A stretch of DNA of 4,041 nt, taken from the IMG/VR virus record IMGVR_UViG_2711768069_000003, positions 1-4,041 of that record; one strand, 5' to 3'. Source of the stretch: a virus (Duplodnaviria; Heunggongvirae; Uroviricota; Caudoviricetes). A program made the position numbers. Positions 1 through 3,000 of the stretch are shown here, one piece after another. The stretch's first letter is position 1; every line of letters begins with the position of its first letter.

Positions 1-3000
1 GTTGCATGGTGCCGGGAAGAAGCATCCGTTATCGCCGGACTGCCAAACGTCAGCGAGCTGGTTGATATGGTTTACGAGTATTGCCGGAAGCGAGGCCTGT
101 ATCCGGATGCAGAGTCTTATCCGTGGAAATCGAACGCGCACTACTGGCTGGTTACCAACCTGTACCAGAACATGCGGGCCAATGCACTGACTGACGCGGA
201 ATTACGGCGCAAGGCCGCAGATGAGCTTGTCCATATGACTGCGAGAATTAACCGTGGTGAGGTGATTCCTGAACCAGTAAAACAACTTCCTGTCATGGGC
301 GGCAGACCTCTAAATCATGTTCAGGCTCTGGCGAAGATCGCAGAAATTAAAGCTAAGTTCGGACTGAAAGGAGCAAGTGTATGACGGGCAAAGAGGCAAT
401 TATTCATTACCTGGGGACGCATAATAGCTTCTGTGCGCCGGACGTTGCCGCGCTAACAGGCGCAACCGTAACCAGTATAAATCAGGCTGCGGCTAAAATG
501 GCGCGGGCAGGAATCCTTGTCATTGATGGTAAGGTCTGGCGAACGGTGTATTACCGGTTTGCTACCAGGGAAGAACGGGAAGGAAAGGTGAGCACGAACC
601 TGATTTTTAAGGAGTGTCGCCAGAGTGCAGCGATGAAACGGGTATTGGCGGTATATGGAGTTAAAAGATGACCATCTACATCACTGAGCTTGTAACAGGC
701 CTGCTGGTAATCGCAGGCCTTTTTATTTGAGGAAGAGTAATTGGAGGCTTTAAGAAATGAGTACGATAGCTGAGCTTGTCAGGGCTAATTTTCGTGAAGA
801 GTTGGTGCGTTGGTATCGGTATCGTTCATCGTCCAGTTTGCCGCTTGATGAGTTGTATGAGCATTCACCTGCCGCACGACGCTATCCGCGTGACCGTGTT
901 CTTCGACGGTTGTTCAAACTCAACAATGAGTTTCAGCGCAACAGAATTATCCGGAGTCTGGATTTTAAGTGAAGGAGTGAGCATGAGCGACCTATCATTA
1001 ACCCAGCCAAAGCTAAAAGAATGTCCGTTTTGCGGCGGTAATGCTCGTCTGTGGGTTGAGGCCGGAATAAATATTGATGTGTGGGGCTATGCAGAATGTG
1101 ACCTCTGTGAAGCCAGGGGGGCATGGGCACCATCAGTTGCTGCGGCGGCTGAAAAATGGAACCGGAGAGCAGGAGATGAAGCAAGCCTTTCTGCTTCGCA
1201 ACGAAGCAATCAGAAATAACGCCATAGACGCCATTCTCTCACTACCCATCGACGACAAGTCACCCCACGAAGTCCACGTTAAAGAACCCAAGCGCAGCAA
1301 AGCGCAGAATGACCGTATGTGGCCGATGCTGAACGATGTTTCGCGTCAGGTGCTATGGCATGGTCAACGGCTGGCGCCGGAAGACTGGAAAGACCTGTTC
1401 ACTGCCCTGTGGCTTAAGACCAAAAAACTGGAGCAACGAAGTGTGCCTGGTATCGACGGTGGCGTTGTCATGCTTGGCGTGCGTACCAGCAAAATGCGGA
1501 AGGCCAGCATGACTGAGCTTATCGAAATCATGTTCTGGTTCGGCTCAGAGCGCAACGTGCGGTGGAGTGATGACTCCTGGCGAGAGTATGAATGGTCACA
1601 ACGAAAAGGGAGAGCTGCATGACTATCAAATCAAATACGCCATCACACGACAAGGACTGCTGGCAAACGCCGCTTTGGCTTTTTGATGCACTGGATATTG
1701 AGTTTGGATTCTGGCTGGATTCAGCTGCGAGCGACAAAAATGCTCTGTGCGCTCACTGGCTAACTGAGGCCGACGACGCGCTAAATTCTGAGTGGATAAG
1801 CCACGGTGCAATCTGGAATAACCCACCGTACAGCAATATCAGGCCGTGGGTGGAAAAAGCCGCTGAGCAGTGCATACAACAGCGACAGACGGTAGTTATG
1901 CTTGTGCCAGAGGATATGTCAGTCGGATGGTTCAGCAAGGCTCTGGAGAGTGTCGACGAAGTTCGCATTATCACTGATGGACGGATTAATTTTATCGAAC
2001 CATCGACAGGGCTGGAGAAGAAGGGAAACAGCAAAGGCTCCATGCTGCTGATTTGGCGACCGTTCATCAGTCCTCGACGAATGTTTACTACTGTATCCAA
2101 AGCGGCATTGATGGCGATCGGGCAGGGCGTCAGGATGGCGGCATGAGGCGACAGCGAAGAAGTATCACCGACATCATCTGCGAAAACTGCAAATACCTTC
2201 CAACGAAACGCTCCAGAAATAAACGCAAGCCAATCCCAAAAGAATCTGACGTAAAAACCTTCAACTACACGGCTCACCTGTGGGATATCCGGTGGCTAAG
2301 ACATCGTGCGAGGAAAACAAGGTGATTGACGCGATGATTTATTCGGGGCTATATTCCTCACGCGCCAGCAAAATCTGGCGTCGGGATTAGCACCCCGGAT
2401 ATCGAAACGGTGCATAACCGCGCTGGCGGTTTTTTTATGCGCTAAGCACAGTCACATTCGCGATTTATGGCGGGCTGTGTGGGGGAGCCGAAAGGCTCGC
2501 CGGATGTTTCGACCGGTAGTGCTAACCCCGCACAGTTCGCCACCACGATGATTAGCACCTGACGGTGGCGAGGTAAAAATTATCGAAACGCGAGGTCATT
2601 ATGGCTGTTCAAATTTCTGTCGAAAACCTTTCCCCTGTTACCTATAACCAGATCCCCGTAATTACTACTGAACTGTTGGCTCACCTTTACGGCACAGAAG
2701 CTATTCGTATTCGCCAGAATCACCACGAAAACAAAGGTCGTTTCATTGAGGAAAAACACTTCTTCAAACTTGAAGGTGAAACTTTACGTGAGTTCAAGCA
2801 CAGAGTAGCTTTTAACTACTCTGTGAAAATTGCCCGTAACGTTCGCTCCCTCATCCTCTGGACAGAACGAGGCGCAGCCCGTCACGCAAAAATGCTCGAA
2901 ACCGATCAGGCTTGACGTTATAGGTCGTTACTTGTAGATTTATCTTTGTGAGGCGTCAGAACCTCTCTAAAGCGGACAAAACCAACCCCGTCAGTGTTGG

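Follow-up and report, generated by a model that had tools for sequence, protein, structure and literature searches.

Our analysis leads us to classify the reading frame at positions 668–730 of the window (the whole stretch of 4,041 nucleotides of viral DNA analysed here) as a member of the NinA family, which is present as a truncated allele, lies on the known terminator tR2 and falls inside a known boundary sequence. The explanation that accounts best for the observations taken jointly, and which we consider probable, is that this frame represents ninA, which opens the lambdoid nin region as its first small gene. ninA, tR2 and their overlap are already known from the literature and from several genome annotations, and the preliminary description of the locus, which had presented the frame as an unrecognised ORF, thus has to be revised on this point: the gene has a name. 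What the present analysis establishes is the identity of the ORF, its local anatomy, the conservation of its coupling to neighbouring genes and a codon-level signal of selection.

In the window the end of gene P is followed by ren and then by ninA, and the ren-ninA arrangement is likewise found in lambda, 434 and PhiR12_1. The features at the locus are as follows.

381–671, plus strand: ren, annotated as 'protein ren' in E. coli E110019; its TGA stop codon (669–671) overlaps the ninA ATG (668–670).
657–660, plus strand: Shine-Dalgarno motif GGAG of ninA, 7 nt 5' of the ATG; a ribosome-binding site is annotated here in phage 434.
668–730, plus strand: ninA, truncated allele of 20 codons plus TGA; it matches phrog_5907 and is annotated as NinA, gp45 or gp56 in relatives.
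697–720, plus strand: tR2 hairpin, with stems 697–704 and 713–720 and loop 705–712; identical to lambda tR2 and annotated as tR2 in Sf6, Nil2, Lahn3 and 434.
721–728, plus strand: T-tract of tR2, TTTTATTT, within ninA codons 18–21.
728–730, plus strand: premature TGA at codon 21, which is TGG (Trp) in almost all relatives.
731–760, plus strand: cut-off 3' part of ninA, GRVIGGFKK followed by TGA 758–760; identical to the tail of PhiR12_1 NinA (30 aa) and outside NinA in the window allele.
743–747, plus strand: Shine-Dalgarno motif GGAGG of the next gene, 9 nt 5' of ATG 757.
757–972, plus strand: next nin-region gene (DUF7301), the ATG of which overlaps the ninA stop codon (ATGA) in full-length alleles.

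The product of the frame in the window, MTIYITELVTGLLVIAGLFI, ends at TGA 728–730, and its residues 1–20 match the phrog_5907 profile (27 positions) with E=6e-13; Pfam holds no family for the window peptide, and Rfam nothing at 655–730. When positions 560–800 were submitted to megablast, 408 phage records were matched. PhiR12_1 encodes a 30-aa 'NinA protein' within a matched 241-nt stretch that is 99% identical to the window, and the residues that this protein shares with the window peptide are identical. The ORF is annotated as ninA in the P22 and Nil2 records, appears in Sf6 as gene 45 (gp45), 'similar to phage 21 NinA', and is labelled in phage 434 'similarity to phage lambda Orf26', there with an annotated ribosome-binding site and terminator; in UniProt, lambda-type and P22 sequences likewise appear under the name 'NinA protein' (Q38675 for P22). 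In lambda, positions 40567–40647 encode MTIYITELITGLLVIAGLFIWGRGKS with an identical hairpin, in agreement with the very similar lambda sequence that the preliminary description had proposed for this place. When lambda 'orf26' and the NinA proteins of P22, Sf6 (gp45) and phage 21 are compared with the window, (i) the N-terminal 20 residues are as in the window, with residue 9 being Val in the window and in P22 NinA and Ile in lambda, (ii) the start codon likewise overlaps the last gene of the replication module in an ATGA arrangement, and (iii) the tR2 hairpin likewise lies within codons 11–18. The window NinA differs from these relatives in that it is devoid of Trp and the basic tail, and of the stop/start overlap with the next gene.

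The name ninA dates from 1982; in literature that cites Kroger and Hobom (1982) it denotes a nin-region gene of lambda and P22, and the nin genes are said to form an ATGA-linked 'chain of interlinked genes'. The gene order ren-ninA-ninI is also given in the literature. ninA is absent both from the lambda RefSeq record and from the PGAP annotation of the closest E. coli genome (E110019), which is probably why the frame looked new. A full-text literature search with the peptide sequence gave no match, and ninA is not among the entries of the O157:H7 Sakai Ribo-seq supplements. The present identification carries little weight as a discovery; its practical value lies in the inconsistent annotation of ninA across records.

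A tblastn search of phages matched 413 of 50,697 records, all of them close relatives in phages of Escherichia, Salmonella and Shigella, and judged by similarity of sequence the NinA family is confined to lambdoid phages of these three genera. The 181-nt query block is present at least partly in 1,977 of 5,426 complete E. coli genomes, with coverage of at least 80% in only 271 of them, and in the cryptic prophage DLP12 of E. coli K-12 it is absent after renD, where YlcH is unrelated. A scan of genome contigs with the back-translated motif MTIYITE proved too degenerate, chance matches being dominant; the informative ones among the matches listed are two real prophage copies, L159 and L209, and contigs contaminated with lambda.

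The frame does comprise 20 codons, as had been described; this length turns out to be a rare truncation (TGG to TGA at codon 21) within a family of 24–34 aa. Among 255 related loci ninA mostly encodes 25–27 aa, and a 20-aa form occurs in only four, the window included. The window frame reads MTIYITELVTGLLVIAGLFI, a stop codon, GRVIGGFKK and a second stop codon, whereas PhiR12_1 has TGG in place of TGA 728–730 and its NinA ends on the TGA that overlaps the ATG of the next gene. Full-length family members have 24–34 aa and a stop codon that overlaps or abuts the next start; the window allele has 20 aa and a gap of 26 nt to ATG 757. The 20-aa form is a truncated allele of the NinA family and not a separate family. 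The same TGA allele is found in L351/L422 (the prophage of E. coli E110019), in L373 and in L384. Since E110019 and the window are 100% identical at 620–800 yet only 94.9% identical over 1–2772, comparison of the two argues that the TGA allele, though rare, is real and carried by at least two prophage lineages. The change at codon 21 would leave the 20-residue hydrophobic core and break the coupling to the next gene, and with 26 nt separating the new stop codon from ATG 757, the DUF7301 gene would have to rely on its own GGAGG. The truncated allele can be viewed as a natural experiment on the importance of the Trp and basic tail and of next-gene coupling.

The coupling of ninA to its neighbours was surveyed with loci gathered in four ways, that is, by the hairpin, by the N-terminal codons, by the end of the helicase gene and by the end of ren. 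The latter two samples were defined by the last 18–20 nt of the upstream gene plus ATGA and are conditioned on ninA only via its first four bases; a ninA ORF follows the ren end in 120 of 120 loci and the helicase end in 108 of 116. The core of the block, about 70 nt from the ATG to GGGGGAGAG, is near-invariant, and this block of about 70 bp is nearly identical across the lambdoid phages of Escherichia, Salmonella and Shigella (lambda-, P22- and Stx-type). All 255 loci that have the N-terminal motif of ninA and enough flanking sequence show the ATGA start, across seven unrelated upstream contexts, and in six of these seven contexts GGAG stands 6–8 nt before the ninA ATG (binomial P=0.002 under a conservative null). 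In the window itself the overlap of ATG 668 with the ren stop codon, GGAG at 7 nt and the stop codon at 728 are all as first described. The earlier proposal that translation of this hydrophobic frame is linked to that of ren by ATGA and a Shine-Dalgarno motif is supported.

Downstream, at least eight different genes follow. The ninA stop codon region shares 4 nt with the next start in 148 loci and 8 nt in at least 28 further ones; the 8-nt overlap probably also holds for most loci with a WGRVNRG tail, where a GTG start fits, and in the remaining loci the stop codon mostly abuts the next start. The tail after Trp21 varies with the downstream module, and its codons 21–24, TGG GGG AGA GGG, also provide the next gene with its purine-rich ribosome-binding region. 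A short conserved block between non-homologous modules, here with seven upstream and at least eight downstream contexts, is what defines a boundary sequence. The same block of about 70–80 bp is marked 'bsq6; boundary sequence' in Sf6, over 81 bp that are also marked 'terminator, homology to lambda tR2'; the bsq6 concept implies a role in recombination, and the likeness drawn here is one of the sequence block and its flanks alone.

The overlap of ninA with tR2 is extensive. The stem of 8 bp, six of them G-C, and the loop lie inside ninA codons 10–18, base 697 closing codon 10, and the stem-loop codes for GLLVIAGL, which bears out the earlier view that the frame is encoded across the hairpin. 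Stem, loop and T-tract are identical to those of lambda tR2, which has the same place after ren, and the first difference from the lambda region is G to A at 729, just past the T-tract. With its G+C-rich stem-loop followed by a T-tract the element has the form of an intrinsic terminator, and termination in the window is predicted from the identity to lambda tR2, the efficiency of which is about 0.9 in vivo (Li et al. 2016, PMC4824070). A generic terminator scan returned no more sites than were found in shuffled sequences. Likewise, 12 ORFs of at least 20 aa overlap a 700-nt stretch at the locus, the opposite strand at ninA having none of at least 20 aa, and taken by itself the window ORF is not beyond chance; it is the comparative evidence that makes the ORF real.

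For the analysis of selection, 206 ungapped lambda-type alleles were selected on nothing but the upstream gene's end. Codons 2–10 show 16 variant types, of which 10 leave the amino acid unchanged when read in the ninA frame, with 28% expected (P=0.004), a test that rests on these 16 types only, the block being highly conserved, and in which shared ancestry is uncorrected; the other two frames, with seven and two synonymous types, show no excess. The alignment check for synonymous bias that had been proposed for this frame thus favours coding. Codon 8 is represented by four Leu codons among the 206 alleles and by a fifth, TTG, in the wider collection, and the non-synonymous types in codons 2–10 are mostly conservative (I/V, I/M, L/I and T/A), T6I not being so. 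Third positions vary in seven of the nine codons 5' of the hairpin and in two of the ten within the hairpin and T-tract (P=0.02), and both of the variable positions in the latter group change from C to T, with G-U pairs retained. Within the hydrophobic core, a change of Leu13 to Gln is common (11 of 206 alleles). Nonsense alleles (the window and L135) and frameshift alleles (L050, L275, L405, L315 and L022) carry their variants after the hairpin. The comparative data thus provide a modest, frame-specific signal of protein-level selection on the N-terminal part: the N-terminal third behaves as coding, while the rest is held by constraint at the RNA or DNA level. From codon 11 on, the roles of the nucleic acid in the hairpin, the T-tract and the Shine-Dalgarno motif of the next gene could explain conservation without any function of the peptide.

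That the start site of lambda NinA is active has been demonstrated by Li et al. (2016; PMC4824070), who flanked lambda tR2, natural upstream sequence included, with two reporters; that paper also cites ribosome profiling. In this system (i) translation from the NinA start lowers termination at tR2 by only about 10%, (ii) transcripts ended at tR2 are non-stop, and expression of the upstream reporter falls to about half, (iii) mutation of the ribosome-binding site or of the AUG restores it, and (iv) with the natural upstream sequence the efficiency of tR2 is already about 0.8 with the stop codon at 18 nt and is around its maximum of about 0.9 beyond 30 bp (PMC4824070). The native ren stop codon lies about 25 nt from the tR2 hairpin. 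Intrinsic terminators release RNA 7–9 nt after the stem, and lambda tR2 is controlled by N antitermination. As TGA 728–730 of the window sits at the point of RNA release, terminated transcripts would probably still be without a complete stop codon. The whole nin region, ninA included, can be deleted without loss of plaque formation.

These observations suggest the following course of events at the locus. Ribosomes that end ren at TGA 669–671, or that bind GGAG 657–660, would start at ATG 668 and would then read through the tR2 stem-loop (codons 11–18) and the T-tract (codons 18–21). In normal alleles codons 21–24 would serve as the ribosome-binding site of the next gene and the ninA stop codon would overlap the next start; with such a tail, NinA would stand at the head of the ATGA-linked series of nin genes, a series that would come into play once RNA polymerase modified by N passes tR2. 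Where transcription ends at tR2, the message would carry the ORF with no stop codon. The product is expected to be a non-essential and very hydrophobic peptide of 24–34 aa (the GRAVY value is 2.0 for the window 20-mer and 1.15 for lambda NinA), and from its hydrophobicity it is probably a single membrane helix. It is then tempting to speculate that NinA is a functional membrane micro-protein and, at the same time, that pR transcripts ending at tR2 are non-stop because translation starts before tR2 and stops after it, so that without N antitermination the O-P-ren mRNA would become a target of tmRNA-dependent decay, and synthesis of the peptide would require active N; as a joint proposal we regard this as distinctly improbable.

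A plainer account, which we hold to be possible if on balance unlikely, is that the ORF is translated and its peptide irrelevant. The open frame would then exist only because a terminator together with a recombination 'boundary sequence' must lie between two genes coupled in translation; it would carry ribosomes across from the replication to the nin genes, and the amino acids would simply follow from what the hairpin, the T-tract and the next gene's ribosome-binding site require. Much of the C-terminal part fits this account, since codons 11–24 all have functions at the nucleic-acid level, the tail after Trp21 changes with the downstream module, and L13Q, nonsense and frameshift alleles exist; in one allele (L133) the frame even runs on into the next gene, and the nin region as a whole is dispensable. 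However, the frame-specific synonymous excess falls in codons 2–10, a region without a known nucleic-acid role, and alleles of the HK022 type keep a 34-aa hydrophobic ORF though their hairpin lies about 650 nt away. Moreover, the bridge to the next gene is broken in the window, yet the TGA allele is found in at least two prophage lineages. At the opposite extreme, the frame might be one of chance that is never translated, with the terminator and the recombination linker alone being of importance. ORFs of 20 codons are indeed common by chance, and neither PGAP nor the lambda RefSeq annotates this one, but we consider such a frame very unlikely: ATGA and GGAG are kept in six of seven unrelated upstream contexts, the stop codon stays at the next start in front of many different downstream modules, the synonymous bias is specific to the frame, and reporter data show activity at the lambda start site (PMC4824070).

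A further reading takes up the small toxic or regulatory peptide of the preliminary description, either as a type I toxin or as a leader peptide controlling termination at tR2; it found no support here, and we judge the probability of either to be very small. Its appeal is evident in that a short peptide of high hydrophobicity (GRAVY 2.0) is encoded by an ORF that shares sequence with a terminator, and non-stop translation cut expression of the upstream reporter about two-fold (PMC4824070). Type I toxins of the Ibs, TisB and Hok class are likewise very short hydrophobic peptides, but for ninA neither an antisense RNA nor an own promoter was found, with no promoter-like site on the minus strand near 655–730 and no Rfam family at 655–730, and the gene lies within an operon, with coupling to both neighbours. 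Similarly, attenuator leader peptides such as the pyrBI leader are encoded by short ORFs across or beside an intrinsic terminator, so that the position of the ribosome could affect the hairpin. In contrast to these, the predicted fold at ninA shows the terminator hairpin alone, with no competing antiterminator or other alternative RNA structure, and regulatory codon runs are absent. Translation also has little measured effect on tR2: silencing the NinA start altered its efficiency by only about 10%, and efficiency is already about 0.8 at a stop distance of 18 nt and about 0.9 beyond 30 bp, the native ren stop being about 25 nt away (PMC4824070). Hence, ninA as first gene of the nin region, here in truncated form, is the reading that we prefer.

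Further types of ninA allele were compared as well. NinA of the HK97 gp56 type (32 aa) has the same first 10 codons and the same length from codon 10 to Trp21 as the window family, and also carries within the ORF a terminator hairpin, which folds well (z=-4.6), and a T-tract; it differs in the hairpin itself (GGGGCTAT.../...TAGCCC) and in the tail, WIKNEGDPDGHR. The HK97-type hairpin was considered as evidence of covariation and rejected, its pairing register being shifted by one base, as in a replacement hairpin rather than one with compensatory changes. Proteins of this type are often mislabelled 'histone H1', and 'hypothetical' is used for ninA elsewhere. L133 (allele C) has a third hairpin at the same place. 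In the HK022 type, a gene for a 203-aa endonuclease with HNH_3 and AP2 domains is inserted between about codon 10 and the hairpin; the upstream piece retains the 34-aa hydrophobic ORF and has no hairpin, and tR2, thus displaced, follows the endonuclease stop codon by 1 nt. The HK97, L133 and HK022 alleles would all be consistent with a hydrophobic peptide being kept, and each of them could also have arisen by chance. As a side possibility, which we likewise regard as improbable, the ninA/tR2 block may by virtue of its extreme conservation serve as a homing site of the HNH endonuclease in alleles of the HK022 type.

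Among the complete E. coli genomes searched, that of strain E110019 (prophage locus L422) provides the sole 100% match to window positions 620-800. The E110019 prophage is, however, only 94.9% identical over positions 1-2772 and differs in its ant region, so the origin of the window is a different, mosaic relative. Two further related loci, L373 and L384, exhibit 99.5-99.8% identity to the window.

The downstream part of the window contains four RNA features and two antirepressor-like ORFs:

2349-2401, + strand: c4-a1b1 targets, strong Rfam match
2362-2436, + strand: isrK, strong Rfam match
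2463-2547, + strand: C4 antisense RNA, strong Rfam match
2601-2915: first antirepressor-like ORF, ORF6N as sole domain
3058-3141, + strand: sRNA-Xcc1, strong Rfam match
3181-3855: second antirepressor-like ORF, ORF6N and P22_AR_C domains

Each set of Rfam matches (2349-2547 and 3058-3141) is followed by an antirepressor-like ORF, the first of which looks truncated, and the whole arrangement looks like two tandem C4 antisense immunity modules of the P1/P7 type.

The premature stop at 728-730 of the window, in the small hydrophobic nin-region gene ninA, is a UGA codon in place of an ancestral UGG (Trp), and one may speculate that, were tRNA-Trp to read through this UGA at all, the wild-type sequence of 30 residues would be regained. 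In HK022-type phages (L012, positions 6334-7080, as well as L091 and L119), ninA is split by a gene encoding a 203-residue HNH_3 + AP2 endonuclease, which is inserted between approximately codon 10 and the hairpin of the intrinsic terminator tR2. The ninA remnant located 5' of the insertion forms a new hydrophobic ORF of 34 residues, the end of which overlaps the start of the endonuclease gene, and tR2 follows the endonuclease stop codon at a distance of 1 nt. The highly conserved ninA/tR2 block may represent a homing site.

In the viral contig L309, the junction between the helicase end and ninA shows a recombination joint after ninA codon 4 (ATGACCATCTACA|AAATACC...), so that MTIY is fused to an unrelated ORF. 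Many NCBI records from E. coli, Salmonella and Shigella list the 32-residue NinA of the HK97 gp56 type under the name 'histone H1', obviously an annotation error which has since been propagated. Finally, exact lambda ren-ninA-ninB sequence is present, among the matches listed, in genome contigs (L152, L206, L211, L216, L220, L223, L232, L245 and L252) from assemblies labelled Pseudomonas, Oceanobacillus, Bradyrhizobium, Psychrobacter and Pseudoxanthomonas, among others; several of these are short contigs of low coverage, and the sequence almost certainly reflects contamination with lambda DNA.
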